Assembly: GCA_963836045.1 (NCBI GenBank)
Contig: CAWIIC010000003.1
Coordinates: 2,854 to 66,853 of the forward strand
Direction of reading: 5' to 3'
Origin: an uncultured Pseudomonadota bacterium
Lineage (GTDB): Bacteria > Chloroflexota > UBA5177 > JAJPKF01
DNA length: 64,000 bases
Shown here: positions 10,102-34,860 of the stretch, piece after piece
Layout of the letters: the number at the start of each line of letters is the position of its first letter
How positions within the stretch are numbered: the stretch's first letter is position 1
Notes under the pieces: model-generated
The model's database searches: none
Seen by the model: the letters and a program-made list of their open reading frames with translations, nothing else
What the model was told of the DNA's origin: nothing
Made by a program: the position numbers and the translations under genes

Positions 10102-10761
10102 CTAACGTGGTTCCGTGGCAGCCCTCCTCGTATGTTGCCGGACTGACGTTGCCGAGCGTGGTGTGCCGGCCGTCCCCTCCGCTGGGTCACAGATGAGATC
10201 CGTCGGGGTCGGTGCAGTCATCTCTACCATCAACTGGATGATGTGGCGAGGCGTGCGGAACTGGCCATTCTGTCCCGCCGATGCGATCTTGCTCAGCATG
10301 TACTCATAGAGATCACCTTTGGTGTCCCGTTCTTCCATAGGTACATCCGAGATCATGTCGACTACCTTCGCCAGCAGTGCGGGCGTTGGGATCGTGAAAC
10401 GCGCATCTCTCATGTGGTGCTGATAGGTTGAGCCGTCATCGCCAAGCATTCGGAGCCAGGGGAAAATGTGCTCGCTGACAACTACATACATGTCGGCAGG
10501 TGCGAGGTTCTTGAAGCGAGACCATCGAAAGTCGACGTATGGACGACCACGAGAGTCGGAACCTTCGGGGAACACAGCGCGCTCAATTGGGTCGCCCGTC
10601 CGGGCCGACCTGTTCTCCGCAAGGGTCTGGAGATCATCGAGCCGCCGCAAGAAGAGAAGGTAGGTGATCTGCTCGATGACTTCTAGCGGATTGGAAATTC
10701 CGCCCGACCAAAATGCGTCCCAGATGCGGTCGACCTGATTCTTGATGGCGCCTGTGATCAT
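10102..10761 (-). pseudogene. hsdM: Type I restriction-modification methylase HsdM, N-terminal ~200-aa fragment
   Basis: HsdM_N-type N-terminus (IWDAFWSGGISNPLEVIEQITYLLFLRRLDD) and the start of the N6-methylase domain (GQFRTPRHIIQLMVEMTAPTPTDLICDPA). The sequence breaks off where CGTAGFL should follow. No hsdS or hsdR gene is nearby. Confidence 0.8.
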
Positions 10762-11018: not shown

Positions 11019-11110
11019 GGCTGCAACGAGTATCGTGCCTCGCGTCTAATTGGCCGTGCTTGTTCTCATACTGCGTTGGCCGCAAGCGCGAACGAGACCC
11101 GTGACTATCT
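11019..11110 (+). repeat. Badly decayed tRNA-3'-portion module (Met-CAU-like)
   Basis: GTTCTCATACTGCGTTGGCCGCAAGCGCGAACGAGACCC (11062-) aligns with GTTCTCATAATCCCTTGGTCGCTGGTTCGAATCCGGCC of the 23.5-kb module. GGCTGCAACGAG upstream resembles the GGCTGCAAAAC arm repeat. Confidence 0.35.
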
Positions 11111-11141
11111 ACTGTGCCACTCTCCACCCAGGCGGAAAAAC

Positions 11142-11466
11142 TAATGCAATAGGTAATGCCAGGCCGAAAAGTAATGCAATACGTAATGCAAAACGAGTGA
11201 TCTACCGGAGTCTAGGAGCGTCCAGCGTGATTGCCGATGTCCACGAATCGTTTGCGGAACGCCATGTTTGGACTCACTTGGAAACGCCTGGATACAATGA
11301 GGTCGGTTTGCTAAACCGCTAAGGGGGTAACGCCCTTCGAGGGTTCGAATCCCTCCCTCTCCGCCACAGCCCTTTATTCCAGCCAAAATGCTGTCGGTAT
11401 CCTGCTCACTTCCGGTCGCGATCTCGTCTAGTTAACGCGCAAACACTGCAAAAGTACTGCAAAAGT
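11142..11466 (+). repeat. tRNA-3'-portion module, Ser(GCU) type, with flanking direct repeats (att-like)
   Basis: GTAATGCA(A) occurs 4x at 11142-11191. The core at 11303-11366 reads TCGGT-TTGCTAA-ACCGC, then a long variable arm with a 5-bp stem, GAGGG-TTCGAAT-CCCTC, and CCTCTCC-G-CCA. ACTGCAAAAGT occurs 2x at 11445-11466. There is no canonical D arm, and the candidate 5' acceptor strand pairs only 5/7. Confidence 0.7.
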
Positions 11467-11547
11467 TTCTTCACCCCGGGAACGTGAGGTAATGGCAGCA
11501 CAGCAACCCAGGTCCGGTACTCTTCCACCAGAAGCGGTCCACGGCTA

Positions 11548-12255
11548 TTGGATCAGATGTTCGCCGTCTGGATCATGCCGTCGCTCGTTGCAAGAGGTTT
11601 GACGCTCGAACGGTCTGAAATATCCCAGGCGTTGATTCTGCTAATACCTTCCATGCCTCCCACAGTGCATATCAACTCAGAGGCGGAGTTGGTCGCAGTG
11701 TTTGCTGCCGCAACCCGAGACATTTCACCGGGAGAACCGATCACTGGAGACGACGTCACAGAACTGGTTGGGATCCGTCCCCGCGAGGACCCCGGTGACT
11801 CCGGCTGGCTAGCATTCGCGACTGTCGGAAGCGAAATCATTGTTGGATGGGACGGCCGACGCAACCGCAAGAGCGCATCCCGACTCGTTGATCGAGCTCG
11901 CGAATTCCTTGCATGCGCCATCGACTCCGTGAGCAATGGCCGATTAGCGCCGGCGGTGGAGTGCGCATTCGCAGCCGCAGAACTAGGTGTCAAAGCTGAC
12001 ATGTTTCTTATGTTTGATCGACCGACGACGAAGCACTGGGAACGGGCCAACTGGTGGTCCGAGTGGGAACGGCTCGGAAACGCTCCGGACGGGACGGCAA
12101 GTACGCTGAGCCGTCTCTATTCTGAGCGTCCAAGTGCTCGATACGCCGAATCCCAAGTCAATGTTGATCCAGCCGAGATGTCATCATTGCTGGAATCGGT
12201 CTCGGTCCTGATCGAGCATGTGGCTGAACGGATCGCCGTCGAGCTGGTGCCCTAA
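11548..12255 (+). CDS. Hypothetical protein with HEPN-like C-terminal helical region
   Basis: The C-terminal half (ASRLVDRAREFLACAIDSVSNGRLAPAVECAFAAAELGVKADMFL...HWERANWW...RLYSERPSARYAE...LLESVSVLIEHV) follows the HEPN helix pattern. I cannot point to a clear R-x4-6-H motif. Confidence 0.4.
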   Translation: MDQMFAVWIMPSLVARGLTLERSEISQALILLIPSMPPTVHINSEAELVAVFAAATRDISPGEPITGDDVTELVGIRPREDPGDSGWLAFATVGSEIIVGWDGRRNRKSASRLVDRAREFLACAIDSVSNGRLAPAVECAFAAAELGVKADMFLMFDRPTTKHWERANWWSEWERLGNAPDGTASTLSRLYSERPSARYAESQVNVDPAEMSSLLESVSVLIEHVAERIAVELVP

Positions 12256-12268
12256 CTACTAGGTGGCG

Positions 12269-13000
12269 TCACTCAAGTTCGGGTTCACTCCGAGGCTTGC
12301 TGAACAGGGCATCCACGCGGTCGGCTGCATCTTTGTGTAGCGTGGGCAAGACGTGGCTGTAGGTGCCCAGCGTCAAGCTAATCGTGCTGTGACCCAACAT
12401 CTCTTGCACGACGCGTGGATGAATGCCTTCAGCAAGAAGTTGCGACGCGGCTGTGTGTCGTAGGTCGTGAACGCGGATGCGGGACAGGCTGGCCTTCTGC
12501 TTTTCGCACACCAATTTCGAGCGCGCGGACTTTCCGTCACCTGCCCAATGTGCGATGTATCCGAAAGAATTTTGACTCGAGTCGATGCCCAGTTCGTGGC
12601 AGACGGCGTGAATGCCGCATGAGTTCGCGCCAACTCCTATCGAAAGCGCATCCAGCGTAGCGAACACTGACGGAGTTGCTCGATCACTGCATTTCTCGAT
12701 GGATGGCGGCAACGTCAATGGCCCTGAAGGGCACCAGTGCAACACAAACTCCAAGGAAACGTCCCACATCACTCAATAGATGGAAGTGTTCCAACTGAAA
12801 CGTCTCGAGTCGATGACAGCGGCGGCACCTTCTGCGGTAGCGGTATAGCGTCGCTGTCGTGATCCAAACGCATTCGGGGGAACATGACTTCCAACCCGAA
12901 GGTCCGGCGTTCTGGGGTCCCCGCCAGTTGTTGAACACTCGATCACGCTGATACGCATTCGATGACAGCGCGATCGGTCCTTCGATTAGCTGGTGAGCTT
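12269..13000 (-). pseudogene. Tyrosine recombinase (phage-type integrase) remnant
   Basis: The C-terminal catalytic blocks are intact (VHDLRHTAASQLLAEGIHPRVVQEMLGHSTISLTLGTYSHV). The box I region is degenerate (ALSIGVGANS, where TGLR..E is expected). Upstream parts are scattered over two other frames (12773-12958, 12684-13124). Confidence 0.75.
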
Positions 13001-13091
13001 CAGCCTGACCGGATGGGCAACCCGTCCGTCGGCTCGTCGTAGAGGAAGGATTTGGCCCACTCGTTGGGGGTCTCGCTTGTACACTGGAAGT

Positions 13092-13797
13092 ATGGCGCAG
13101 TGCACAGCACCTGTACGCGGCCACCGTTCATCGGCCGCTGCTGCGAATTGTCCTGCTTGCGGGGGACGGGGATACTACCGCTCTTCCTACTCCTACTCTC
13201 CGCCCGTCTCGTCTTACCGGAGCGGGTCGTCATTCGGTGGGGCCGGTTCAAGCGGCGGCAGGTCCTCCGGCGGTGGGAGATCGCGTCGGACTAGGGCTGG
13301 CGGATCGGTCTCGTACAGCCCAACCGAGTGGCGCTCCATCGAACCCCTCGCTCGCAAGGCCGTCGAGCAATCGCGCGAGCACCCAGACCGTCGGGACCTT
13401 TTCTTATGCCATGCATGGGACGATCGAGAGGGCAGCGCCTCTGAGTTGTACAACCGCCTGCAATCCAATGGCGCGTCGGTCTGGTTCAGCGAGAAGGATG
13501 TTCCCCTCGGCAAGCAGTTGATCCGTGAGATCGACAAGGGGCTCAAGAACTCTCGCGTCGGAATCGTGCTGGTGACCCCGGCGCTGCTCAAGAGCATCGA
13601 TGGAAAAGGAACTCTCCGTGCTGCTCGCGACCGGCCGGGTTATCCCCGTTGCGCATGGGACCACCTTCGAGGCACTGCGAGAGGTCAGCCCGATGCTGGC
13701 GTCGCACGCGGGACTGAACACGGCAGATTCGTCGCTGGCGGACGTGGCCGCCAAGGTCGCCGCAGCAGCAGCGGCGCTAGCCGACGACGGGGTCTAA
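13092..13797 (+). pseudogene. TIR-domain protein with Cys-pair N-terminus and Gly/Ser-rich linker; one frame break at ~13603-13610
   Basis: The order is MAQCTAPVRGHRSSAAAANCPACGGRG, a low-complexity SSYSYSPPVSSYRSGSSFGGAGSSGGRSSGGGRSRR linker, then a TIR_2-like block (DLFLCHAWDDREGSASELYNRLQSNGASVWFSEKDVPLGKQLIREIDKGLKNSRVGIVLVTPALLKS). The conserved tail ELSVLLATGRVIPVAHGTTFEALREVSPMLAS lies in the frame of ORF 13600-13797. Confidence 0.75.
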
Positions 13798-14199
13798 CGC
13801 GGTTATAGTGGCGCCGCGAACCACGGTCCGGTCGGCCCCTGCGCGGTGACCGGTCTGGTGCTGACTCCCCGCGGGCGATGGATCGATCCCTCTCATGGGC
13901 CAAGGATGCGACGTCGGGGAAGGGCTGACGAACGCCGACGACTGATCACGCAACGAGCCGAGCCGTGGAGCATCCCACTACGCCCCTCGATAAGCGGCAC
14001 AGCCTGGTCCATGCAACCCGAAGGTCTGGGTCGCTGTCCCTTCAGTCGGGTTTCTGGGGACCAGAGCTTGGGACCGACGGCATCCGGTTGCGAGTCAGCA
14101 AACGGTCGCGATTGAATCCGTTTCGGAGAGTTCCGTCGACCCAGTCTTGATAGCGGGTTCGTAATACAAATTCGAAAGTGGACTATACCAGATCCGCAT

Positions 14200-14365
14200 G
14201 GCTGCAAAACGGCTGCAAAACACGATGGAGGAACATGGATGTTCAGGGACAATCGCGGTCTGAGCTCCACAGAATTACGCCAGAAATGGATGTTGACGGA
14301 TGACTGCGGACCGATGACATGGAACTTCTAATCCGATGGTCGCCGCAGGCGCTGCATCAAGGTCC
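14200..14365 (+). repeat. Truncated tRNA-3'-portion module (identity unclear)
   Basis: GGCTGCAAAAC occurs 2x (14200-14221), followed by the GATGTTCAGG block shared with the 23.4-kb module. Then comes CTTCTAATCCGATGGTCGCCGCAGG (14325-), which aligns with GTTCTTTTAATCCGTTGGTTCCGGG of the Lys-type module. The T arm and acceptor are missing. Confidence 0.45.
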
Positions 14366-14367
14366 AG

Positions 14368-14649
14368 TACTGCAAGACGTACTGCAAAAGGAGACCGTCC
14401 AGATACATCTAGGTGCGGCCAGTCACCAATGCCGTTGCGCACTTTTGGCGTCTCCGCTGGTCTCATGGATCGCTATGGATGCGCCTGGAGGAGCGAGATT
14501 CGGATTGCTAATCCGCTGTGGGGAGTAATCTCTATTGCGGGTTCGAATCCCTACCTATCCGCCACAGCCCTTTCTTACGGCGACAAAAACGACCGATTCG
14601 GTTCTGCGTTACGTCGTTTCGTTCTACTTTGGGACCAAGTACTGCAAAG
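14368..14649 (+). repeat. tRNA-3'-portion module, Ser(GCU) type, with flanking direct repeats (att-like)
   Basis: TACTGCAAGACG/TACTGCAAAAGG at 14368-14391. The core at 14500-14564 reads TCGGA-TTGCTAA-TCCGC, a long variable region, GGGTTCGAATCCC (T stem imperfect), and CCTATCC-G-CCA. The downstream CAGCCCTTT is shared with the 11.3-kb copy. GTACTGCAAAG lies at 14639-14649. Confidence 0.65.
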
Positions 14650-14861
14650 CCTTGAGAGTTCCTGCGGAGCTGTGGTGACATGAGGTAGTTAGACACAGAT
14701 GTACGGCAACGTGCGAAGCTAGGAATCAGACGTGGACGGAGCGCCTACTGTCACAAAGACTGACCTGTTACAAGATTCGCGGTCACGGAAATCCATGAGA
14801 CCCCAACTGGATTCTGAGCGGTGATGCCGTTGAGACATGGCATATCGAGCTTGTTGGTGGC

Positions 14862-16376
14862 GTGGAGAGCGACACCGCCCACTTCTCTCTCTATCTTGGT
14901 GAAAGCGAGTCTCCGGAACCGCCATGGGTGGGTTTCTTGCGATCGGAGTTTCGCGATCTCCGCCCGGTTCCGGCGAGAAGCAATCTCGGGGCGGTGCTTC
15001 TCGTTCGACTCGCCGGCGAAGGTGAAGGCGAAGTCTTTGCATACGCCTTCGGATATGGTCGCCTGTTTCTGAATCGTCGGCGAATCGATCGCAGTTGGGG
15101 ATTGCGCGCCGCCCTAAATCTGACGAACCATGAACAACTTAAGTCGCTCACAACGAAGATCGTTGGCAGTAACACGCTGCACATGCAAAGTACTGCGACA
15201 AGGGATGACGCGGTCTTCACGTTCGAAATCGACACCGGGCGCAGTCTTTTGGGCGCCATAGAAGGACGGACACTTGATCCGGAAGGCTGGGGTAATCGCA
15301 TCTCAGGTGGGGATGCCGTGAAGTTCGCCCCATCAGTTTCCGTTCGCGAATTGGAGGAAGCGTGTCGAGCACTATTGATCGCACGGCGCGCAGACGACTA
15401 TAAGGCACATATTCCGTGGGCCGACAACATGTCTGAAGTGGACAACCTCGAGCTACTCGAAGAGTTGTCCTCCGCATCTATAGGCGAGATTCGGGCAAAT
15501 TCTGGAAAGTTTGAGATAGTCGCGCCGGCCATCCTCACCAACCAGGACTACGAGTACTTTCAGTACTCGCACGCGCGTGACCGCCAGCACGGGGTCCCGC
15601 GACGTGAGTTGCGCCTTATCGACTATTTGCAATATGTAAATCGCGGATTGCTGGACGTGGCAACCCTGCAGCGTCACGAGATCAGGGCCGTAAGTACTGA
15701 GGGGGAGGACGTTGAATCGTGGTCGGTGTGGAATTGCATTTCGGGCGTGCTCGAATTGCGCGGACAGTCTTTTGTGTTGGACGAAGGCAAGTTCTATCAA
15801 GTAGATAGTGACTTTCTCGCGGGATTGGATGGCTCGATCGATGGCCTCGACTCGCACCATCTGGAACTCCCGACACTCGCGGTTGGTGAAGCGGAAGAAG
15901 CGTATCTGCTACGAATTGCTGAAGACATGGCTGACATGCTCCTGCTGGATCAAAGACTCGCACGAATTGCTGGGGAAGATCCGATTGAAGTGTGCGACCT
16001 ACTTCGGACTTCCGGAGAACTCATTCACATGAAGAAGGGCTTTACGGGTGCCGGGTTGAGTCACCTATGTAGACAAGCGACAGGCTCAGCCGAAGCCTTG
16101 GCGACGAGCCCCGCCTTCCGGGACGCCGTCAGGGCCCGCATGGTGCGAATTGCCGATGACGGTGGTGGGGAAGTCATGATCTGGGTGGCGGGTCTGCTGA
16201 GGGATCCGTTTGTCCCGACGGAAGTAACTTTTGCCATCGCTGGGCATTGGGCAGGGCGAAGTGCATCCGCAGGACTACCGTTTGGAAGCAAGATGGGTTT
16301 GCGCACGGCCGCCGAAAATCTCCGCAGACGTGGATTCGTCCCGCGATTGATTCGAGTCGAAATCGAACGACCTTAG
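14862..16376 (+). CDS. TIGR04141/DUF6119-like 'sporadically distributed' protein (function unknown)
   Basis: A 504-aa intact ORF. The C-terminal block IEVCDLLRTSGELIHMKKGFTGAGLSHLCRQATGSAEAL matches my recollection of that family's signature (E.cD...g.liHvK..s.s..lSHL..Q). This is a family assignment from memory, not a search. Confidence 0.55.
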   Translation: MESDTAHFSLYLGESESPEPPWVGFLRSEFRDLRPVPARSNLGAVLLVRLAGEGEGEVFAYAFGYGRLFLNRRRIDRSWGLRAALNLTNHEQLKSLTTKIVGSNTLHMQSTATRDDAVFTFEIDTGRSLLGAIEGRTLDPEGWGNRISGGDAVKFAPSVSVRELEEACRALLIARRADDYKAHIPWADNMSEVDNLELLEELSSASIGEIRANSGKFEIVAPAILTNQDYEYFQYSHARDRQHGVPRRELRLIDYLQYVNRGLLDVATLQRHEIRAVSTEGEDVESWSVWNCISGVLELRGQSFVLDEGKFYQVDSDFLAGLDGSIDGLDSHHLELPTLAVGEAEEAYLLRIAEDMADMLLLDQRLARIAGEDPIEVCDLLRTSGELIHMKKGFTGAGLSHLCRQATGSAEALATSPAFRDAVRARMVRIADDGGGEVMIWVAGLLRDPFVPTEVTFAIAGHWAGRSASAGLPFGSKMGLRTAAENLRRRGFVPRLIRVEIERP

Positions 16377-16418
16377 TTCCAGCCGCCTCGGCTTGCGCTA
16401 GAGGGTTGCTTGCCAGCT

Positions 16419-16772
16419 TTAGATTTCTGGAAATCGACGACTAGGTTCGCCTGGCCCTTGGACCCAGCTTGGTCGGGCTGGCTGATGACCGCCCTCTGTC
16501 AGTCCGAACGCCGTGCACGCATGGCTCAACTTGCTTCGAATGTCAAGGGCCCGCTCGGTGGTGATCACACCTTCGAGCGGGTCGAGATGGTACTCGGATA
16601 CGACTTCGTCGATTTGATCTTGCGTTACACCAAGCTGCTCTGCAAGTGTTTCTTTGGTAAACCCTTCCACGATGTGCGCCTCGCCCCTTCGCAACTGAAG
16701 GTGTCTGCCCAGATTATCGCCGGTCCGGTTGCTGCAAAGGCTTCGAAGTGCGCGACGTGCTGACATTTGCAT
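16419..16772 (-). CDS. Small XRE-like HTH protein
   Basis: GFTKETLAEQLGVTQDQIDEVVSE looks like an HTH. The gene is convergent with the TIGR04141-like gene. Its ATG lies 5 nt from the GTACAGT tandem repeat (16778-16796). Confidence 0.5.
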   Translation of the reverse strand: MQMSARRALRSLCSNRTGDNLGRHLQLRRGEAHIVEGFTKETLAEQLGVTQDQIDEVVSEYHLDPLEGVITTERALDIRSKLSHACTAFGLTEGGHQPARPSWVQGPGEPSRRFPEI

Positions 16773-16777
16773 CGTTT

Positions 16778-16960
16778 GTACAGTGATTCGTACAGTAATG
16801 CGACGCGTCTAGGGATCTGCAGGGGCATCCAGGGGTGCATGCAATGTAGATAACTTGGCGTTATTCCGCCGTTGTTGGACATCAAGAAACGCCATTGGAC
16901 GTCCTACAAGTGTTCTCATAATACCTTGGTCGCTGTGCCGAATCCAGCCGGGCCCCAACC
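16778..16960 (+). repeat. tRNA-3'-portion module, Met(CAU) type, decayed
   Basis: GTACAGT 2x (16778-16796). The core at 16915-16957 reads CTCATAA-TACCT-TGGTC-GCTGT-GCCGAAT-CCAGC-CGGGCCC, a mutated copy of 23475-23519. The downstream CTTGTTTGCCC...GCCAAAAACAGC parallels the 23.5-kb copy. Confidence 0.6.
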
Positions 16961-17036
16961 TAACCTACATCCTTGTTTGCCCAGCAGTTTAGCCAAAAAC
17001 AGCATATCAACAATGGATTGCAATGCGGCCATCTAC

Positions 17037-17882
17037 TCAACATGAATGCTGATTTTGAGATTTGTGCAGTAGATGTACAGTGATGCCGACGCGGGATGGA
17101 CCAGCGGCCGCGTTCAGTACAGCACCAGCTTGTGCCTTATTGACCACCTTCCCGTTCTGAAATTCAATGTAGGCGTTAGCACCGCTGTTCCCCTCGGTCC
17201 AGGAGTAGATTGCAGTTTGGCTATCCCCGGATCCCGACTGCTCTGAGAGTGTCCCCGTTCCGAGCAATGACTGCACTTGCGCGAGCGTCATACCGATCTG
17301 CACAGCATCAAAGCTTCTTAGAGTCAATGATCCAGGGGTGGCGGGCTGCGGTGTAGTGGGTGTCGAAGGGACTGCGTCGAACGGTACGGTAATGGCTAGC
17401 GGTTCACTGACCAGATCAGCACTGATCTGCATTGTGCGTATATTCGATGTCGGTGGTGATGGAGTTCCTAAGGTCGCTACGATATCTCCCGGCCAGGTAC
17501 TCAGTTCTCCTGCAGTTTGTGTTTGCGCAGCATCGTAAAAGAGATCAATGGTCGCGGCACAGTAACTGTCGAGGTGGTTCGCAAAGAAGAAGTCCAACGC
17601 ATCACTAAGCCGTGTGTAACTCGATGCGTTTTCACTCACGACCGCTGCGTAAAATGGTGATTCGCAGATGCCGGGTTGCGCGCCATTTTGATGGGTCACC
17701 ACGTTGAGGTCGCTGACATTTCCTTTCGCAGCAATCAATCGTAAGTCAGCCGCGCTCCTCGGGACAGTCAAACTGGCTTGCGTCGAAGCGGGTTGTGAAG
17801 GCGTCGGCGTCTGCTTCTGGGGGTTGGAGTTCAATGCGGTTCCTGATGAGCCGCATCCAACTAGGGCCATGACCACTGCCAA
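17037..17882 (-). CDS. Lipoprotein with C-terminal DUF3862/BLIP-like domain
   Basis: Lipobox MAVVMALVGC. The C-terminus (FDAVQIGMTLAQVQSLLGTGTLSEQSG...AIYSWTEGNSGANAYIEFQNGKVVNKAQAG) fits the small beta-rich lipoprotein-domain pattern. Confidence 0.6.
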   Translation of the reverse strand: MAVVMALVGCGSSGTALNSNPQKQTPTPSQPASTQASLTVPRSAADLRLIAAKGNVSDLNVVTHQNGAQPGICESPFYAAVVSENASSYTRLSDALDFFFANHLDSYCAATIDLFYDAAQTQTAGELSTWPGDIVATLGTPSPPTSNIRTMQISADLVSEPLAITVPFDAVPSTPTTPQPATPGSLTLRSFDAVQIGMTLAQVQSLLGTGTLSEQSGSGDSQTAIYSWTEGNSGANAYIEFQNGKVVNKAQAGAVLNAAAGPSRVGITVHLLHKSQNQHSC

Positions 17883-17966
17883 ACCACGACAATCTCATGG
17901 AGCAATGGTAGCTAAGTGTTTACAGCTAGGCAGAGCTCTGTCAGCCGAGTCCGAAGCTGCTCCTTT

Positions 17967-18110
17967 GTCTCGCCTTCTGCAAGCAGTCTGAGTGTGTCAG
18001 AGGAAATCGAACACACTCAGAAATCGGGGAATTCCGTCACTCTTGGACAGACGTGGACACACTCAGACGTCATCGATGCGGTTTGCTAAACCGCTTAAGA
18101 TGCCTAGCAC
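17967..18110 (+). repeat. Fragmentary tRNA-3'-portion module: Ser(GCU) anticodon arm only
   Basis: AGACGTGGACACACTCAGACGTCATCGAT aligns with AGACGTGGAGAGACACCCCAAGATGCCTGATCAG of the 23.4-kb module. A perfect arm GCGGT-TTGCTAA-ACCGC follows (18078-18094). The variable arm is partly recognisable, and the T arm and acceptor are absent. ACACACTCAGA occurs twice direct and once inverted (17981-18067). Confidence 0.5.
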
Positions 18111-18116
18111 GCCTAG

Positions 18117-18900
18117 TTAGTTCACGTCGTTCTGCGGCAACTCTGCCACCTGTCGGAACCCGGCGTACACGGGGCCTCCCACCTCGTCGAGAATCTCTCG
18201 CGCCCATATTGTCAGCAGTTGATCGTTATCCTCGCACGCCAATCGCCTTCTCGCGACAACTAATGCGGCGGCTCTCTGAGGATCACACGCTCGGAGTGCG
18301 CGAATCTGACGCTTACCGCCTTCCGGGTACACGCCCCGCCGATCAAACAATAAGTCTGAGGCCGCGTCGATAATCCAACATCCGATACTGAGGCGCTCCT
18401 CGCGATCGTTGGAAGCACCGAGGTCTATCAGGGCGTCCGTGATTTTGTAGCGAAGAGCGTCAATCGTTCTTGCGTCTAGCCGACGCGGCCCGGCGTCCAG
18501 CAGAACCTTGGTTTCATGCTGAGTAGAAGAGGCCATATCTCTTCGATCCAGCAGAACGATGCCGTCGGCGACAATGGAACACAAAGCCACATGCCGGTCT
18601 CTCAGCTCTTGGTCACGAAATTGGGCCCACGCTGAATGCGTATGTACGAAGGCCTCAACCGGCCACCCCAGCTGAATGAAGGTTTCTCGGAACGGCGCCT
18701 CCGAGACATCGCCGAAGGACTACGATGTCGAGATCTGAGAATGGTGTCGCAGCAGAAGTCAGCACCGCCGATCCAAGGAAAGCTAGCTCAGCTGCTGGGT
18801 AGCGTTCGGAGACAATCCGGGTGGCCGCCTCGACGGCAGGTATTCGAGTCTTAGGCAGGCTCAACAGAGGCTGATACTGCTTTCTTGCGGTCGCGTCCAT
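18117..18900 (-). pseudogene. Pol-beta-superfamily nucleotidyltransferase (antibiotic-NTase-like), one frame break at ~18720
   Basis: NTase motif AFLGSAVLTSAATPFSDLDIVV (ORF 18655-19140). After a 1-nt shift the sequence continues as FGDVSEAPFRETFIQLGWPVEAFVHTHSAW...VALCSIVADGIVLLD, in frame with ORF 18117-18590. Confidence 0.65.
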
Positions 18901-19028
18901 GCTCTTAGTGTAGGTGGCGCGATTCCAATTGCGTGTCGGGCTTAACAATAAGTGAGAAGGTTGGGGGTGTACAGTCGATGTACAGTAATGCGGTACTCGA
19001 ATAGCATCAATCAATCTCATTGCCGGTG

Positions 19029-19973
19029 TTAGTCCCGACAATGCCCAATGCGAGGATTTCGCTTCCAGAAGTACCTGAATAGGTATCGCGGAGACGTACA
19101 TAACGACACCCGCTTTTGCTGACGGAGATTGGTACTCCATCCGTGGCCACGCATTCCTAGCAGTGCGAAGCCGTCCACCGCGTAGTACACATCGTAGGAA
19201 CCTCCGGGATACACAAACCGCAGGTCGTAGGCCGCTACGTGATCAAAGAGTCGACCGTGGACTAGGCGATATCCCGTTCCATTGCCGGTGCTTATGAAAC
19301 CATCACGGCGAGCTGTTGCCGCCAGACCTGCTGCGATACCAGGATCGTCCACGCCATGTATGAAGTACGCAGTAAGGTCGCCCCTGTGGCTGCGCAACCT
19401 GGGTCCCTGCCAGACCAACGCGAAGTTCATGGCGGTATTCATCGGCAAGCCCATGTTGTGAGCGAGGCGAAAGAAGTAAACGACCTTACTAGTCTGGGTA
19501 ACTGTCTCTAGTCCCCTCACCACGTATGTTCCGTGGATTCTCATCGACCAGACACGAAATGTAAGGTCGCGGCACCTCGACAAGCCTTGACACTTCACGC
19601 GCTCAGAGTAAACGCGTTCGAGCACCTGACCGGGCTTTGGTGTAGCAGCCCTTGCAGCGCGAACCAGAACCGTCCCCGCGGAAACCGGAGTTGGGCTCTG
19701 AGCGACTGAGTTAATAAGCACGGTTGTAACAATTGCTGTAGCTACGATGGCTGCGCACAAAGTGAAGCGCCACGGGGGAGCCCGAAGACCACGGAGCAGC
19801 TTGTCAGGATTCGCGGCCTGGGGTCGATCCGTGAGACGGCTCACAAACGCATCGACAGAAGCTGAGGGATGGCCCTGTGTGCAAATGTGACCAAGCATTT
19901 CCACCAAATGTCGCCGGTCGGCTGAAGAATTCGGCGTTATGAGGTCGTCATATCCGTGGTCAACAGGTCTCAT
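19029..19973 (-). CDS. Putative anti-sigma factor (single-pass membrane protein)
   Basis: Overlaps the 3' end of the ECF sigma gene. One TM helix (FTLCAAIVATAIVTTVLI). The extracytoplasmic domain is of unknown family. The call rests on position only. Confidence 0.5.
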   Translation of the reverse strand: MRPVDHGYDDLITPNSSADRRHLVEMLGHICTQGHPSASVDAFVSRLTDRPQAANPDKLLRGLRAPPWRFTLCAAIVATAIVTTVLINSVAQSPTPVSAGTVLVRAARAATPKPGQVLERVYSERVKCQGLSRCRDLTFRVWSMRIHGTYVVRGLETVTQTSKVVYFFRLAHNMGLPMNTAMNFALVWQGPRLRSHRGDLTAYFIHGVDDPGIAAGLAATARRDGFISTGNGTGYRLVHGRLFDHVAAYDLRFVYPGGSYDVYYAVDGFALLGMRGHGWSTNLRQQKRVSLCTSPRYLFRYFWKRNPRIGHCRD

Positions 19974-20475
19974 TGATCCTCCTCTCTATTTGCTGCAAAG
20001 TGCGCGATAGCTGCTTTCGAGTAGCTTCAGGCGTTCTCTTTATCAGTCGAGCAATATCAGGAATCGTCAGTCCCGCTGCAAACCGAAGAGCGATGAGGTC
20101 CTGTTTGTCTTTGGGGAGATCGGAGACGATGGAGCGAACTTGGCGATATTCGTCGGCATACTCGACCTCGGATTCGGTGTCGTCGCTCGATGCGATATCA
20201 GGCAGCGGAGTAGTGAGCCAACCGCGTCGTCGGGCCTGCCGGTGACGGTCGACAACGAGGTGTCGGGCAATGGTAAACAGCCAGACTGCAGTAGCGTCGC
20301 ATTGGGCATCGGGTTTCGAGAGCGCAGCCCAAGCTTTCGCAAAAGTCTGTTGGGTTAAATCATCGGCATCCTCCGGAGATCCCGTCCTAGTCCGGAAGTA
20401 CCAATAAACGCGCTCGCGATGTAGACGATAGAAGTCCTGGAAGGCCTCTGTTCCAGGGTTCTGTGCATCAACCAT
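19960..20475 (-). CDS. ECF-type sigma-70 factor
   Basis: Region 2 (DADDLTQQTFAKAWAAL, WLFTIARHLVVDRHR) and region 4 (LPKDKQDLIALRFAAGLTIPDIARLIKRTPEATRKQLSRTLQQI). Confidence 0.85.
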   Translation of the reverse strand: MVDAQNPGTEAFQDFYRLHRERVYWYFRTRTGSPEDADDLTQQTFAKAWAALSKPDAQCDATAVWLFTIARHLVVDRHRQARRRGWLTTPLPDIASSDDTESEVEYADEYRQVRSIVSDLPKDKQDLIALRFAAGLTIPDIARLIKRTPEATRKQLSRTLQQIERRINETC

Positions 20476-20606
20476 CCGACCCGCTGCTCTCAGAAGCTTG
20501 CCCCTTGATTATCAGTCGTACCAGCACGTACCTGATTGGGTGTCCACCAGGGTCGGCTCGACCCCACTATTAAATAGAACGCTCGATACGGCCAAACCGG
20601 ACATCA

Positions 20607-22043
20607 ATGTGTAGTGAGGAAACGCCTGAAATAGAGCACTGTTTGCTGCCCGAATCGGCGCGTTTGTCGGACCGTTATTTATGTGTATTGGAAAGGCGCA
20701 TAGCATGGGTAGTGACAGACCTCCCAATCGAGAAGAGTCAGTCTCTCTGCCGCTATCGTCTCCTCATCGGGGACAACCAGAAGAGGATTCTCGTCGACGC
20801 CCGCAATTCCAAGGTCCGGCTACCAACCTGGCTCACGGGGCGCGGTCACCCCTTGCAAGCGACCGATCACATCAACAAGTGGACCCTGTCGCGAACGGGC
20901 GTGAGGGCAATCACTCTGCGCTGCATCTCGACGGGTCCGAGCCCAGATGGCGAGTCCATCGAGCGGCGGTACGAACTTGCGGCACTTCGCCCGGTCGATC
21001 CGGCAGAAGGATTTCTTTGGATCTCGAGGGATGAGGTGCCCGAACTCGCTACCCCTTCAGAACGGAATCTGGCCGAAACACACTTTTCGGATTTCGCTTC
21101 TCCGCCCGCTGCCCGCCGCCCGTGGGCAAGGCCGGGTTGGTGGGAGACTGCCGCCGCATGGATCCAGCAGCAGCTTCAGGTGGCGGGACATAGGGGCGAA
21201 CCAAAGATAACGCAAATCAGTAGCTGGGAACGTGGCTGTGTCTTGCGAGTCGTTAGTCCAGCTGCGACGCTCTACTTCAAAGCATTGCCGCTGCAGTTGG
21301 CCCATGAGTTAGGCGTGCTGCGCAGCTTGGCGATGGAGAATCCTAGTCTGGTTCCAAAGCTCGTAGCGGCCGATGAGGACTGCCGTTGGATCCTCACAGA
21401 GAAGATGCCTGGTCGCGCGCTTAGCGTTCGGGATGACGTGGATCAGTGGCGTACTGCCTGCTCTGTCCTCGCCAAGTTGCAGGTCGGCAGCATCGCCACC
21501 GCAGAGCTGTTTCGAGCGGACCTTCCCTCTCGTGGCGTGGACTGGATGCTCAACAAGTTAGCCGCTGATCCCTTTCGACGCGCTGATATTTCGCCCGAGT
21601 TTCGGGCGCAGCTTGGAGCGCGACTCACTGGCCTGAGGTCGCAGGCCCGACGACTGGCGGCGCTTTCTCTTCCGTCGGCAATCGAACATGGCGACCTAAT
21701 TCCCAGCAATATCTTCATCCATGCGGGAAATGCAGTGATCTTCGACTGGACCGACGCCTCCGTCTCCATCCCCTTCTTCAGCCTATGGTCGCTGCTCGAC
21801 GCAATCGGAACTGATGTAGCCCACCTCGGCACAAAGACTGCGCGGAAAGCTCTGGTAGACGCCTACTTTCGCAAATGGAACAAGCTAGCGAGCGACGCAA
21901 CGCTATCCGAAGCCTGGCGCCTCACGCAGCGGCTCGCACCGCTCCACTTGGCACTGCGCTACCAGTTCGACATCCTGCCGGCCGTGGAGTCGCGCTGGGA
22001 AATGGAAAACATGGTGCCCTACTTCCTCCACAAGCTAGCCTGA
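20607..22043 (+). CDS. Phosphotransferase-family (APH/choline-kinase-like) protein
   Basis: Catalytic block IEHGDLIPSNIFIHAGNAVIFDWTDASVSIPFFSL (the HGDL..N...DW.D pattern). The N-terminal ~150 aa are unassigned and the start codon is uncertain. Confidence 0.7.
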   Translation: MCSEETPEIEHCLLPESARLSDRYLCVLERRIAWVVTDLPIEKSQSLCRYRLLIGDNQKRILVDARNSKVRLPTWLTGRGHPLQATDHINKWTLSRTGVRAITLRCISTGPSPDGESIERRYELAALRPVDPAEGFLWISRDEVPELATPSERNLAETHFSDFASPPAARRPWARPGWWETAAAWIQQQLQVAGHRGEPKITQISSWERGCVLRVVSPAATLYFKALPLQLAHELGVLRSLAMENPSLVPKLVAADEDCRWILTEKMPGRALSVRDDVDQWRTACSVLAKLQVGSIATAELFRADLPSRGVDWMLNKLAADPFRRADISPEFRAQLGARLTGLRSQARRLAALSLPSAIEHGDLIPSNIFIHAGNAVIFDWTDASVSIPFFSLWSLLDAIGTDVAHLGTKTARKALVDAYFRKWNKLASDATLSEAWRLTQRLAPLHLALRYQFDILPAVESRWEMENMVPYFLHKLA

Positions 22044-22459
22044 CCGGAGAGTATTTGGACGGCCATAGATTGTTCAGGAATCTGAGCCGTCGGGATCTAT
22101 ATGTTCGCGAATCGTTAAATTGCTGCCAGCTATTGAACGCGGTGGCATGCTGTGAATAGGTCCGGGGGGGACGAGCAAACCGCGTCCGACGTCCAGATAT
22201 TCAGTGTTAGGCAAAGACATGCCTTAATGCTAACGGGTCGTTGTTGTTCTCAGGTCCATCAACGTACGAATGAGTTTGGCCAGGTCACGTGTCTGAAATA
22301 ATTGGTGAGCCGCGATGGCATTGCATAATCGTGGAAACAAGCGCTGGATGAAATGCGGCTCGCGCGTACGCCAGTAGAAAGTGACGTGATCCGATCACCG
22401 ACATTGTCAGTCTGCTTACTGAACTTGGTATCTCTGGCGCTGAATACGAGAGCCAACTC

Positions 22460-23228
22460 GTGCAGACTCGGTTTCGGCAGAAGCTTGTTGACGCCTGGAG
22501 AATCCTTCCGGGCACTGCAATCTTGGAGGTTGGGTGCGGTCAGGGAGACATGACACTCGTGCTCGCGGCCGCAACGGGTGCAGATGGGCACGTCACTGCA
22601 ATTGACGCAGCAGACGAAACTTCGGGCTCACCGCTTACCTTTGCGAAGGCCACGGCGCGCATTCGCCGATCTCGTGTTGGAAAAGCAGTCTCCTTTCGAT
22701 TCGGCGTCGATGTTCTCGAGCCTGAAGGTGGTCCTGCCACGATCTCACTACGACTGCGCTGTGCTGGCTCACTCGCTTTGGTATTTCGCTTCCATGGACT
22801 TGTTGCAACGAACTCTCAAGCGAATGAAGGAGTTGGCCGATCGGCTTTATCTCTCAGAGTGGGACCTGACACCGACAAGGAAATCCCAGCTGCCACACTT
22901 TGCAGCGGCCCTAGTCCAGGGATGGACATCTGCCTGGAAACCCGATCGCCGCTGCAATATTCAGACACTTATGAGTCGACAGGCGATCGAGCGGCTTGTT
23001 CTGGATGCCGGCTGGACAATCGAAACCAATGTCTCCGTCGACAGCTCAGACCTTCAGGACGGCAGATGGGAGGTTCTCAACTGTCTCCAGATACTCAGCT
23101 CAGGAATCGGTAGGGACGACTCAACGACTATTGAGGGCCTGGACTTGGATAATGTGAAAATACTTCTCCAGCAGTCAGCGTCTGAGGCTCTGCCATCGTT
23201 TGCAATGCGTTGCCACCAACCGCAATGA
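22460..23228 (+). pseudogene. Class I SAM-dependent methyltransferase, one frame break at ~22730
   Basis: Motif I ILEVGCGQGD and VTAIDAAD lie in ORF 22460-23113. The continuation RSHYDCAVLAHSLWYFAS... lies in ORF 22578-23228. Confidence 0.7.
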
Positions 23229-23338
23229 GATGCGACCAGTTTGGCGATGACCATCGCGCACCTCTCCGCGGACGGTTCTTCAGGGCACGCATAACACCTT
23301 CGTCACCACGCGAGGAAGGACGGTCGGCAGCGCCACCT

Positions 23339-23640
23339 GTACAGCAAGCCGTACAGCAAACGTGACGTCTGCCGATGTTCAGGCATGTCCGCGGAAGTAG
23401 GGCTCAGTTGAGATGTGGCTAAAGAACGCCACAACTAGACGTGGAGAGACACCCCAAGATGCCTGATCAGCGTTCTCATAATCCCTTGGTCGCTGGTTCG
23501 AATCCGGCCGGGCCCACCAAATCTCGACTGCTTGTTTCTCCCGGGATAACGCCACAAACAGCGCTTAACCTAACCACATTTCGGGAGCATTCAACTTAAC
23601 GATAAGCACGGATTTTCGTCTTGTACAGTTGTTGTACAGT
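23339..23640 (+). repeat. tRNA-3'-portion module, Met(CAU) type, best preserved, with flanking direct repeats (att-like)
   Basis: GTACAGCAA 2x (23339-23359). The core at 23475-23519 reads CTCATAA-TCCCT-TGGTC-GCTGG-TTCGAAT-CCGGC-CGGGCCC-A-CCA. GTACAGT 2x at 23623-23640. The 5 nt before the loop (GCGTT) cannot pair with TCCCT, and no GGGCCCG 5' strand is present. Confidence 0.7.
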
Positions 23641-24000
23641 AATGGCAATTCCGAGCGACCGAGACGGCATGCTCTTAGTCTTCCGGTGTGATGCGGAGGT
23701 GTCAATCAAGGACTTTCACGAAACGCTTAGGCTGAGTCCAAGAGATGACAGTGATGGGGGTTTAACGTTCCCGCTGAGTTGACATCGTTCACGGTCGTCA
23801 GTATGTCGAGATGTGTGCAACCCGCTGACCGAATTTCTGTGGAGGCACGCGCTCACCCTCGATCAGAGGCAACGCGTTGGCGGCGAGTTGAGTAAGTCCT
23901 GCAGTGCGCAGATCCATGCTGGCGTCAGTAAGCAGACGATCTCGCCCACGAACCGTCCAACCGATTCAGCCGCATACGCTCAAGCGACCATGCGAGCCGG

Positions 24001-24612
24001 TCACGAATCTAAAGCGGGGTGCCAGCGTCCCGATCGTATCTGCGGTCTGGAAGGCCCAAGGCTGGTTCGCCCCGTCAGGTATAGCAGCCCGTCCCAGGGA
24101 TCCTGGTCCTTGGGAAGATTAGACAAGGGAAAGAGGCGAGCGCAGATCTTGGAGCAGACGGTTCTATCAGGATGTATCTTTCCATGAAGGCCCTGACAGA
24201 TGTCCCAGCCGTGAACATAGAGTTCCATGCCAGCCAATGCGTTAAAAGCCATCGCATCTGCCAGTCCCCATGGGTGATAGGCATGTGCACTGGGGCCGAC
24301 AGTGCGCAGGGTGGCCACCATCATGCTACTCGCGGCCTGGATGAACTCCACGGCGTCTTTGGAATCAGCACCGCTCGTCAGCCTGGCTCGGAACTCGACA
24401 TAGTGGTCGGTAGGTCCCGCAGCAAGTTGCCCAGCATAGGCCAAACAGTCATCAGCCATGTGACTCGCCGTTCGCAGGCAGCTCCACCGAAGTGAGCCTG
24501 CTCGAACTGACCAATCCTTTCCCGTCAGGGGACTCAGAGAGTCTAGCGTTTGGTCAATGGCAGTTTGCAGATCCAATGGCGTGAGGAATTGGGACATCGC
24601 CACGTCGCTCAA
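24001..24612 (-). CDS. DinB/MDMPI_N-like (mycothiol-dependent maleylpyruvate isomerase N-terminal domain) protein
   Basis: DWSVRAGSLRWSCLRTASHMADDCLAYAGQLAAGP... matches the DinB_2/TIGR03083-type helix-bundle pattern. Confidence 0.65.
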   Translation of the reverse strand: MSDVAMSQFLTPLDLQTAIDQTLDSLSPLTGKDWSVRAGSLRWSCLRTASHMADDCLAYAGQLAAGPTDHYVEFRARLTSGADSKDAVEFIQAASSMMVATLRTVGPSAHAYHPWGLADAMAFNALAGMELYVHGWDICQGLHGKIHPDRTVCSKICARLFPLSNLPKDQDPWDGLLYLTGRTSLGPSRPQIRSGRWHPALDS

Positions 24613-25153
24613 CTCCTGGGCAGGTGCTGCAAAAGTCTACAGGCTGTTCCTGGCTGCATCTCGCATGTCAGGAATCCCTCTTGACCAGAGCGTCAAGGCT
24701 TCCTCCTTTGTCACATCGCCGCGCTCGCCCTTCACCCACCAGTCGCGCGCCGGATTCGTTTCAAGTATGGGTCCGCCGTCTTGTGATGGCCGGTGAGCGA
24801 GGCGCAGCTCACAATGTTCCCTGCCGGCAGACGAGCTTCGGACAGCGAAGCCCTGGACCCACTCGACCCAAACCACAGTGAACAGCACACCACCACGTCT
24901 GTCCCACCTCCTATGCTGGGAGAGTATCCCGCACCCGCAGCCAAACCATCCAGGCGCGCTGCCCAACTCACTTGTCTACCATCATCCAGGGGTAAGTACA
25001 AGGACGACAGGAAGATCGGCCAGGAACCGGTTGAGAGGACTTACCTCTTCCTGTCACGCTGGTCACGCTGGCATTCACCAGCCAAAGATTGACTGCCCTG
25101 CAGCGTGCTAGGCTTTAGCGTGGTTTGCTCCGAAGTCAAAACAGGAGTTACCA

Positions 25154-25876
25154 ATGTACAGGATTGTGCTGGCGTTTCCCGTGGTGCCCGGTAAGAGCGA
25201 AGCCGAGGTCACCGCAATCGCCGACGTATTCCGTTCTCGTCCTGTGGAATACCGAGAGGCACGGCAGCGCATTGGTATCACGCGGGAACGAGCCTATTAC
25301 CAGAAGTCACCGATGGGCGATTTCGTGGTCGCTTACATCGAGAGCGAGCGCCCCTACAGTGAGGCGGCCGCGAGCCTGGTGTCGTCCACGCAGGACATCG
25401 ATCATCAGTTCGTACGCCACGTCAACGAAGTGCACGGTGTTGATCTCACCCAGCCGCCTGCAGGTCCCGCACCCGAAACGGTTGCTGAGTGGTTTGATCC
25501 GAACGCTTCCGGCCGCCTCCGTGGCATGGCCTTCTGCGCACCCCTTCTTCCTGGCCGCTACGATGCCGGCAAAGCATGGGCACACGAAGCCTTTGTCACC
25601 CGTCGTGACGAGCTGACTGCATCCCGTCGCGCGTGGGGTCAGACCGGTGAAGTCGTCACCGTGATGCAGACGCCGCACGGCGATATCTGCTGCGTCTACC
25701 TGGAAGGCACTGACCCTGTGGAGGGCAACCGGAAGTTCGCTGCCTCGAATACCGAATACGACCGCTGGTTCAAGGATCAGCTGAAGACGCTGTTTCCGCC
25801 GCAAGTCGACTTCAATCAGCCGGTCCCATCAGTGACCGAGATTTTCGACTCAGCGTCGCTCTTGGTCGCAAGCTAA
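25154..25876 (+). CDS. Hypothetical protein made of two tandem ~115-aa repeats
   Basis: Good RBS (AGGAG 7 nt upstream). Both halves share the pattern ..P..PGK/R....A......R..E...SR...G...E......P.GD....Y.E...P. No family recognised. Confidence 0.5.
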   Translation: MYRIVLAFPVVPGKSEAEVTAIADVFRSRPVEYREARQRIGITRERAYYQKSPMGDFVVAYIESERPYSEAAASLVSSTQDIDHQFVRHVNEVHGVDLTQPPAGPAPETVAEWFDPNASGRLRGMAFCAPLLPGRYDAGKAWAHEAFVTRRDELTASRRAWGQTGEVVTVMQTPHGDICCVYLEGTDPVEGNRKFAASNTEYDRWFKDQLKTLFPPQVDFNQPVPSVTEIFDSASLLVAS

Positions 25877-26096
25877 GGGAAGCTACCGGGCGCGGGCGTG
25901 CAGGATGGCATGCCACTCGCGACACGGAGTATGGGTTGGGGAGCTACGATCAACGACGGCCTCAGCCCGCGGATGCTTTCGTAGCTGACTGGCCGGAACG
26001 AGTGTCGATCGATGGGACTGGATTGCTAAGTGGACCGCGCTGGAAACACGGCGTAGAACCTCCAAATCCGTGGTGGCGCTGTCGGAAGCAGGACCT

Positions 26097-26370
26097 GTAC
26101 AGCAATCTGTACAGCAAAAGTGCCGATCTACCGATGTCCAGACGCGTCCATGGAGCTATACATCAGGTGAAATCGGCGGAAACACGCCACTCCTGGACAG
26201 TGGTAACGCGCGCAGACGCCGTATCAGCGTTCTTTTAATCCGTTGGTTCCGGGTTCGAGTCCCGGCGCCCTCACCAGCCGTTTCTGGCGGAATGATGCCA
26301 GGGTCAGTGAAGCGTCCGAGTCGGAGGAACTCGATAATAAGTCGCTCGTCCAGCGAAAGTACAGCAAAAG
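26097..26370 (+). repeat. tRNA-3'-portion module, Lys(UUU) type, with flanking direct repeats (att-like)
   Basis: GTACAGCAA 2x (26097-26117). The core at 26232-26276 reads CTTTTAA-TCCGT-TGGTT-CCGGG-TTCGAGT-CCCGG-CGCCCTC-A-CCA. GTACAGCAAAAG at 26359-26370. The upstream ~130 nt align with the 23.4-kb module along their whole length. Confidence 0.7.
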
Positions 26371-31289: not shown

Positions 31290-31298
31290 GTCGTTCGC

Positions 31299-34776: not shown

Positions 34777-34831
34777 TGGTGCTCGGGGAGCTTTGCTAGC
34801 CGGCTGGGGCGCACAGTGCCGGATAGTTCGA

Positions 34832-34860
34832 ATTATATAACAGGTGACAATCGCAGACAA
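34832..34860 (-). promoter_or_regulatory. Candidate sigma70-type promoter for the tandem kinase genes
   Basis: On the minus strand: TTGTCT (34860-34855), a 17-nt spacer, then TATAAT (34837-34832), about 55 nt upstream of the copy B ATG at 34776. Pattern match only. Confidence 0.3.

Follow-up and report, generated by a model that had tools for sequence, protein, structure and literature searches.

Heterobivalent integrases that target tRNA genes, among them those of the actinomycete elements pSAM2 and SLP1 and of mycobacteriophage L5, work on attP and attR sites of the lambda-type architecture. Other systems gather DNA that carries no recombinase of its own: the cis-mobilizable elements (CIMEs), known from the accretion and mobilization of ICEs (integrative and conjugative elements) and IMEs (integrative and mobilizable elements) in streptococci, are att-bounded and recombinase-less, can gain neighbours site-specifically and could be mobilized by an integrase acting in trans, and the arrays of integrative mobile elements exploiting Xer recombination (IMEX) and of dif modules use a dif site of 28 bp together with XerCD, the recombinases of the host. 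In the tycheposon islands of Prochlorococcus, tandem elements have partial tRNA copies between them, and fragmented integrases and partial tRNAs are scattered along the island (bioRxiv 10.1101/2020.12.28.424599). Here we describe an island of approximately 15 kb, located within a 64-kb stretch of DNA (the window) of an uncultured soil Chloroflexota bacterium, in which a module ending in the 3' part of a tRNA is repeated. The pattern is real and common in related bacteria, and represents a modified form of an already known route to genomic islands. No published description of such arrays was found in open-access text.

Modules ending in tRNA 3' parts

Seven modules were recognized in the island, all on the plus strand: A, B, C, D, E, G and H, at 11.1, 14.2, 14.4, 16.8, 18.0, 23.3 and 26.1 kb, respectively. 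Each of them finishes in a tRNA 3' part, which is of the Ser-GCU, Met/Ile2-CAU or Lys-UUU type and in one case Arg-UCU-like. A first nhmmer profile, trained solely on G, H and two foreign loci, found D (2e-19), A (1e-12), C (5e-12), E (2e-7) and B (1.4e-4), all on the plus strand. A broader profile retrieved the identical seven modules and nothing further in the window; B was part of its training alignment (6e-17) and E was outside the training set (9.5e-9). The recurrent plus-strand architecture, described earlier from the letters of the window alone (the sequence-only reading), was therefore homologous beyond chance (nhmmer 2e-19 to 1.4e-4). The mutual identity among the modules is approximately 50 %, indicating that they are not recent copies.

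A full module consists of tandem arm repeats (GTACWGCAA and variants), a P arm of approximately 130 nt, a tRNA 3' half and P' arm repeats. The core, the block of identity with the tRNA, spans the region from the anticodon loop to the tRNA 3' end; between the core and the P' repeats lie 70-105 nt, which often include a hairpin. Arm repeats of a single orientation stand on both sides of the core, with pairs flanking it in A, D, G and H. Their spacing is 12 bp for the upstream pairs (A, C, D, G and H) and 11 bp for the downstream pairs (A, D, F, G and H; site F is described below). The downstream direct repeats of the sequence-only reading proved to be real at 11445-11465 (A, two copies of ACTGCAAAAG), 14639-14649 (C, a lone repeat, GTACTGCAAAG), 17063-17085 (D), 23623-23645 (G, GTACAGTT/GTACAGTAA) and 26348-26370 (H). 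The idea that these P' repeats are the truncated start of a next module was rejected: the spacing is 11 bp versus 12 bp, and P' repeats are also present in the bona fide sites of the foreign loci L004, L019 and L055.

Module A (11142-11465) opens with four P repeats, TAATGCAA/TAATGCC (11142-11191), followed by the 3' part of a tRNA-Ser(GCU) including CCA (11303-11366). Module C (14367-14649) has the P repeats GTACTGCAA twice (14367-14388) and a tRNA-Ser(GCU) 3' part at 14500-14564; like A, it was also matched in the relaxed Rfam search. Module B (14200-14350), with two P repeats GGCTGCAAAAC at 14200-14221, abuts the arm repeats of C directly. Its core is decayed, with the Arg-UCU-like loop CTTCTAA, and the module is closely resembled by one at 1055-1200 of L001, a contig of a related strain. 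Module D (16778-17085) has the P repeats GTACAGTGA/GTACAGTAA (16778-16800) and a decayed Met/Ile2(CAU) 3' part (16915-16957). Module E (17994-18096) is reduced to the distal P arm and the anticodon stem-loop of a Ser(GCU) tRNA (18078-18094), the remainder being missing.

Modules G and H were in the training set of the first profile. G (23339-23645), recognized by its arm words and T-loop motif, has two P repeats GTACAGCAA (23339-23360) and a Met/Ile2(CAU) 3' part including CCA (23475-23519). H (26097-26370), which was matched by relaxed Rfam, has two P repeats GTACAGCAA at 26097-26120 and a tRNA-Lys(UUU) 3' part including CCA at 26232-26276. Site F (18967-18991) is an arm-repeat pair only (GTGTACAGTCGATGTACAGTAATGC, with the 11-bp spacing of the P' type), and was absent from the sequence-only reading.

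That reading had counted eight copies with three tRNA identities. Seven copies stand; the one at 11.0 kb is weak. Site I (11048-11083, plus strand), a possible decayed Met-type remnant made of a P-arm end and a CTCATA loop region, was seen by local alignment, with a score reached by 1 of 1000 shuffles for the alignment to D and by 14 of 1000 for that to G, and was undetected by both nhmmer profiles. The identities Ser, Met and Lys are confirmed; since B has an Arg-UCU-like loop, there are probably four.

ARAGORN found neither a tRNA nor a transfer-messenger RNA (tmRNA) gene in the whole window, and Rfam at gathering thresholds gave no match there. At relaxed thresholds (10.5-27 kb), the meaningful Rfam matches were all partial and tRNA-like: the Ser 3' halves at 11311-11363 and 14508-14561 were matched via a plastid family antisense to trnS, the T arm and acceptor of modules A and G were covered by tmRNA 3'-end matches, and the best tRNA alignment, at 26215-26273, stayed below threshold (23.8 bits versus a cut-off of 29). 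A cloverleaf complete with 5' acceptor strand, D arm, anticodon arm and T arm was not present in the window, and tRNA-like sequence was absent from 1-10.6 kb and from 26.9-40 kb. ARAGORN, Rfam and the scans of the flanks thus exclude complete tRNAs overlooked by eye, in agreement with the earlier statement that no tRNA here is intact.

The motif counts show the same restriction to the island. GTACWGYAA occurs 12 times versus 0.8 expected, on the plus strand only and always inside 11.45-26.37 kb. GGTTCGARTCC occurs four times in the window versus 0.11 expected, and a looser arm pattern gave 24 matches on the plus strand versus 1 on the minus strand.

Related sites and recombination traces in other genomes

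Species-representative genomes yielded 13 loci, and metagenomes a further 76, in a search with a combined pattern (arm pair, 125-155 nt, T loop). The 13 genome loci belong to Rubrobacter, Chloroflexota, Anaerolineae, Modestobacter and one metagenome-assembled genome (MAG) labelled Proteobacteria. Elsewhere the cores come from tRNAs for Lys, Ser, Asn, Phe, Val and Thr, the dominant core in Rubrobacter being the 3' part of tRNA-Thr(CGU). Module H and L019 (525-722) are 77 % identical over 198 nt, and the likeness ends exactly at CCA.

In three of the foreign loci the site has an integrase or a tRNA gene as a partner. The phage-like, Bacteroidota-like contig L004 carries (3530-3784) an arm pair, a tRNA 3' fragment and a second arm pair, with the arm word AGTACAGCAAATAGTACAGCAAAA on both arms; next comes a 412-aa integrase that has no detectable similarity to the GC-rich integrases. 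Convergence may account for a shared arm word beside so dissimilar an integrase, or else the arm-binding specificity is very old. In the low-GC contig L087, a 416-aa integrase (Phage_int_SAM_3 and Phage_integrase) is followed within 40 nt by three copies of GTACTGCAA, a P arm and a tRNA-Asn 3' half, an arrangement that reads as a classical attR. The left end of the L055 insert is an intact tRNA-Val with downstream P' repeats of the GTACAGCAA type; its right end, 6.7 kb on, consists of P repeats and a P arm, after which 46 nt of the tRNA are repeated from a point 3 nt ahead of the anticodon loop. Genes in this insert are an IS256-family (Mutator-type) transposase and a RES-Xre pair; an integrase could not be recognised among them. 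The sequence-only reading had taken the modules for attP-type sites and had pointed to homologous sites beside a tRNA gene or an integrase as a check: these were found beside the integrases of L004 and L087 and beside the tRNA-Val of L055, and the same arm word recurs in L004, in L087 and at the ends of the L055 insert.

A phage or plasmid origin of the sites was considered and rejected: the P arm of H had no match in PLSDB or INPHARED, and L004 was the sole real site in scans of IMG/VR.

Arrays like that of the window are not rare. At least 17 loci, Rubrobacter and Chloroflexota contigs among them, have two or three modules in the same direction, 1-9 kb apart. ARAGORN was run on 47 module-bearing loci, and a tRNA near a module was found in L055 (the tRNA-Val, 6.7 kb upstream) and in L018 and L021 (just downstream of arm repeats) only. 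Neighbouring junctions in Rubrobacter-type arrays differ in their arm word (GTACTGCAAC, GTGTGCCAAC, TGTACACCAAC, ACATCACC and TGACACCAC), and in L072 the first tRNA fragment is followed after 220 nt by another of a different kind, so that mixed cores occur elsewhere too. In L031 and L040 a full-length integrase, and in L026 a stub, is found downstream of a module and on the opposite strand, which is the geometry of module A, the HEPN gene and the reversed integrase stub in the window; with L026 the window shares the whole order of module, HEPN gene and reversed integrase.

Comparisons of contigs pointed to the core as a candidate place of exchange, with mosaic break points falling at the anticodon loop and where the core ends. 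Pairs of contigs are identical over 230-629 nt left of the core and lose this identity 9-10, 20 or 49-53 nt past the beginning of the anticodon-loop motif AAACTCGTA, and inserts in the relatives are flanked by the tRNA-identity block as a direct repeat. L046 and L072, which are 98-99 % identical, differ by a 1.9-kb insert of L046 flanked by a 55-nt core repeat. Within it, a single patatin-SnoaL gene stands between P' repeats and P repeats that both belong to the insert, and an integrase is absent. The insert is the expected product of recombination between two complete sites. It provides one empty/occupied pair of the kind that the sequence-only reading had suggested looking for among related genomes. 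In L049, an integrase-less insert lies between attL-like and attR-like sites.

Two observations in these loci stand apart. In an Anaerolineae MAG (L018 6529-6710, L021 2264-2445 and also L033), three GTACAGCAA repeats and 55 identical nt precede, by approximately 100 nt, genes for tRNA-Met and tRNA-Asn that are intact, an arm on the 5' side of a whole tRNA being the reverse of the usual geometry. Just past the last module of Rubrobacter-type arrays, a 428-aa membrane protein with no Pfam match is encoded (L094 7309-8595, with homologues in L014, L030, L066 and others), which is probably a conserved chromosomal neighbour at the distal edge of the tRNA-Thr island. An unknown protein of approximately 400 aa had been considered as a hidden recombinase, a candidate that was rejected: the one that recurs, that of L094, is membrane-like and the others are unrelated.

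Cargo genes and integrase remnants

The segments between modules hold one to three genes, as determined by Pfam scans and PADLOC. Directly behind module A lies a HEPN-domain gene (11548-12255, plus strand; Pfam HEPN). It is followed on the minus strand by the C-terminal remnant of a tyrosine integrase (12287-12526), approximately 80 aa from the HxLRHT box on, which matches Pfam Phage_integrase at profile positions 119-169 only and aligns to aa 332-394 of the 410-aa integrase of L031. The stub lies 0.9 kb from module A and on the opposite strand. In a search with an integrase-fragment profile against the six-frame open reading frames (ORFs) of the whole window it was the sole match, as the sequence-only reading had it when it counted a single integrase remnant. 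A cognate integrase beside a site, such as L087 and L004 have, was not found in the window.

The stub was also tried as a lead to intact relatives with the same sites. Its 120 best database matches are all short fragments, and three of them, with surroundings read, lie beside tRNA-Lys(CUU), with the arm word absent; the lead was abandoned, since with such look-alikes the stub cannot be tied to the modules. Integrase remnants in L014, L035, L037, L056, L076, L094 and L099 have, like the window stub, kept only the last 60-70 residues, their alignments beginning at aa 324-341 of approximately 410, just ahead of the HxLRHT box. At several loci the truncated integrase end lies directly against the next module's arm repeats.

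Behind the stub follows an apparently frameshifted ThsB-type TIR gene (12993-13808, plus strand; Pfam TIR_2; PADLOC ThsB, 4e-63), for which no ThsA partner was seen nearby. Between C and D (14862-16772) Pfam identified a DUF6119 gene on the plus strand, which does not extend to the N-terminal part of the profile of its family, and a helix-turn-helix (HTH) gene of 117 aa on the minus strand. The cargo between D and G (17037-23228, mixed strands; Pfam) comprises a lipoprotein-like gene, a broken nucleotidyltransferase-like gene, a 314-aa gene with an extracytoplasmic function (ECF) sigma factor, an APH-family kinase and a broken methyltransferase. Between G and H (24001-25876) are a DinB/MDMPI-like gene and a 109-aa ORF, both on the minus strand, and a DUF6176 gene on the plus strand; its two closest homologues with surroundings read are in an ordinary chromosomal context, adjoining leuS. 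None of the window cargo genes was found beside modules elsewhere among approximately 100 loci.

A single strain comparison was available for the window: L001 is 98.8 % identical and covers 18.1-35.9 kb, and exact-protein look-ups for extending the comparison or the left flank gave nothing beyond it. At site F, L001 has a 1.7-kb stretch that holds two more modules and two genes. An IS630-like insertion of L001 (7317-8573) lies at window position 23726-23733, just behind the P' arm of G; a Logan contig ends at 23726-23733 too. The nucleotidyltransferase-like gene (18117-19140) and the methyltransferase gene (22460-23228) are split in the window and intact in L001 (260 and 255 aa, respectively), and are either pseudogenes or the result of assembly indel errors.

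Outside the array, the left flank contains an IS630-family transposase (2868-3788, minus strand) and, immediately left of the array, a fragment of a type I restriction-modification HsdM (10102-10761, minus strand; N-terminal domain and the first approximately 60 aa of the methylase domain). To the right, the region 27848-34863 is made of two paralogous tandem pairs of an HTH regulator and a Ser/Thr kinase fused to a beta-lactamase-like domain; one copy of the regulator also carries AAA_16. The paralogous cross-matches, seen in the BLAST comparison of L001 with the window, are 88-92 % identical.

Proposed assembly of the island and comparison with known systems

The island was probably stacked as elements, largely non-autonomous, entered one another's sites by site-specific insertion, and is now partly decayed. 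The features of the modules and of their relatives support their interpretation as putative attP-type recombination junctions that belong to a single broad family of integrative elements targeting tRNA genes. The movers would be heterobivalent tyrosine integrases (Phage_int_SAM_3 and Phage_integrase), with a short N-terminal arm-binding domain that would bind the arm repeats. A circular element with such a site would recombine with a resident site of the same core, the crossover presumably falling in or beside the anticodon loop, and each insertion would leave two complete hybrid junctions flanking the newcomer. Repetition and nesting would stack cargo of one to three genes, mostly defence, toxin-antitoxin-like and accessory genes. 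Most segments may have lost their own integrase, or may be non-autonomous with an integrase supplied in trans.

An order of insertion can be proposed from the arm words. The P' repeats of A match the P repeats of C, and a Ser-type element containing the HEPN gene, the integrase stub, the TIR gene and module B would lie between A and C. The P repeats of D (GTACAGT...GTACAGTAATGC) match the P' repeats of G and site F, and Met-type insertions would be bounded by I and D and by D and G. H has one and the same arm word on its P and P' arms, so that the Lys site would be self-consistent. The system in the window is at least partly dead: decay is seen in B, D, E and I, and of integrase a single stub is left.

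Several points weigh against stacked insertion. No anchor tRNA is found in the window or within 11 kb upstream, although one could lie further upstream. The Ser, Met and Lys cores are interleaved, which makes accretion at a single tRNA impossible and calls for nested insertion or the movement of composite blocks; why different identities are located together is not explained by the model. The P repeats of A do not match the P' repeat of C, and the nesting is therefore not fully self-consistent. None of approximately 20 complete GC-rich sites with this arm word has an integrase next to it, for which reason most units look non-autonomous. The integrase stub, being of a very common type that also occurs beside tRNAs lacking the repeats, may be unrelated to the modules. 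The difference between L046 and L072 could be due to RecA-mediated deletion between the 55-nt repeats instead of to an integrase, and the change at F in L001 is a replacement, not a clean insertion at the core.

A live integron-like cassette platform, in which an integrase encoded elsewhere inserts, excises and reshuffles integrase-less segments and the tRNA-half cores are address labels deciding which of them can recombine, would overlap with stacked insertion but differ from it in its present activity and in its independence from tRNA genes. G and H are complete P-core-P' junctions in which arm pairs and T-arm stems are perfect; these are in line with it, and so are the complete sites of relatives that have no adjoining integrase, the one-gene insert of L046 relative to L072, the integrase-less inserts of L049 and L055, the many metagenome contigs that end at modules and a Logan contig that ends inside the T arm of H. 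We nevertheless regard a live platform as unlikely, given 64 kb with no integrase gene, decay of four of the eight core-bearing sites and breakage of several cargo genes, a strain difference at F that is not core-bounded, cargo in both orientations with no common promoter, and window cargo that does not recur beside modules elsewhere. A tRNA-independent cassette system of soil Chloroflexota and Actinomycetota, in which an integrase in trans stacks, excises and exchanges integrase-less cassettes of one to a few genes, each with a complete attP-type site and with the tRNA-half cores as interchangeable labels, appears rather doubtful. The sequence-only reading had offered a graveyard of serial integrations or a cassette array. 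Each is partly right for the window: the integrase remnants and decayed copies speak for the former, and the complete junctions around integrase-less segments of one to three genes and the empty/occupied pair in relatives for the latter.

Two further explanations give the tRNA-like ends another origin. The uniform strand, the conserved 130-nt upstream block, the encoded CCA with hairpins past it and a GGCG-N6-CGCC inverted repeat in many P arms are also what structured small RNA genes with a tRNA-like 3' end might show, the repeats being binding sites of a regulatory protein. The T arm was the sole structure shared in RNAalifold, and no Rfam family beyond tRNA fragments was matched; GGCG-N6-CGCC pairs in 58.5 % of cells versus 92.7 % for the T arm, with little compensatory change, and a structured RNA in the P arm was rejected on these grounds. 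As the same sites also adjoin integrases and terminate inserted DNA, small RNA genes are a very improbable explanation. A cluster of tRNAs that lost their 5' halves, or a tRNA-derived short repeat resembling miniature inverted-repeat transposable elements (MITEs) or short interspersed nuclear elements (SINEs), would account for several identities standing close together and for units of approximately 300 bp. It can scarcely be credited, however: what replaces the 5' half is homologous across identities and foreign loci, the modules are approximately 50 % identical, terminal inverted repeats and target duplications are lacking, and the polymorphisms duplicate the core alone and include cargo.

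Should the junctions prove to be what they seem, the stacked insertions show how accessory and defence genes build up in poorly studied soil phyla, and that small, mostly integrase-less segments enter each other's tRNA-derived sites and not only tRNA genes. The signature, pairs of GTACWGCAA, approximately 130 nt and a tRNA 3' half, is searchable, with approximately 90 further loci in Rubrobacter, Chloroflexota, Modestobacter and others, and could be used to delimit islands and non-autonomous elements overlooked by integrase-based finders. A cassette system, if true, would be a functional integron analogue made of lambda-type sites; a new mechanism could be claimed only if trans activity were demonstrated.

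Compared with known systems, the window resembles an integron in being a one-direction array of short recombinase-free segments, each followed by a site. It differs in the lack of attI and of an IntI-type integrase, the six-frame ORFs of the window giving no tyrosine-recombinase signal beyond the stub and Pfam scans of the flanking ORFs giving none, and in the mixed orientation of a cargo without a common promoter. Integron attC sites are single-strand hairpins, whereas the window sites are of the double-stranded attP type, with arm repeats and a tRNA-derived core; attC-like folding repeats were not found, the consensus fold of the modules being the tRNA T arm only. On both the integrase and the attC criteria an integron was ruled out. 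With IMEX and dif modules the window shares integrase-less modules stacked at repeated sites, the recombinase being elsewhere, but those modules have neither arm repeats nor a tRNA-derived core.

The likeness to tycheposon islands lies in serial integration at one site, which pushes older elements inward, in adaptive and defence cargo, and in the integrase remnant inside the island (12287-12526, minus strand). Tycheposon islands begin at an intact tRNA and repeat that one. In the window, no intact tRNA was found at the proximal end of the island, no anchor lies within reach, and instead of repeated partial copies of one tRNA the Ser, Met/Ile2, Lys and Arg-like cores are interleaved; unlike those islands, the window keeps arm repeats on both sides of most junctions. 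The judgement of the sequence-only reading that the locus is not a standard picture holds only in part: same-direction arrays lacking a nearby tRNA are frequent in related soil bacteria, and repeats of partial tRNAs with broken integrases have been described in tRNA-linked islands.

Like CIMEs, the window segments are att-bounded without a recombinase of their own: C-D, D-G and G-H hold no integrase. CIMEs are usually decayed ICEs or IMEs at one chromosomal site, whereas here single-gene units with their own P and P' arms (L046) and multi-unit arrays are found. Compared with lambda-type attP and attR, the window sites are unusual in being complete hybrids embedded in the chromosome, with neither integrase nor tRNA and with three or four identities mixed. 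In both, arm-type direct repeats flank the core, and the stretch identical to the tRNA begins at the anticodon loop and reaches the 3' end, which lets integration restore the tRNA gene; the intact relatives L087 and L004 have the integrase beside the site, and the L055 tRNA-Val locus has classical attL and attR sites.

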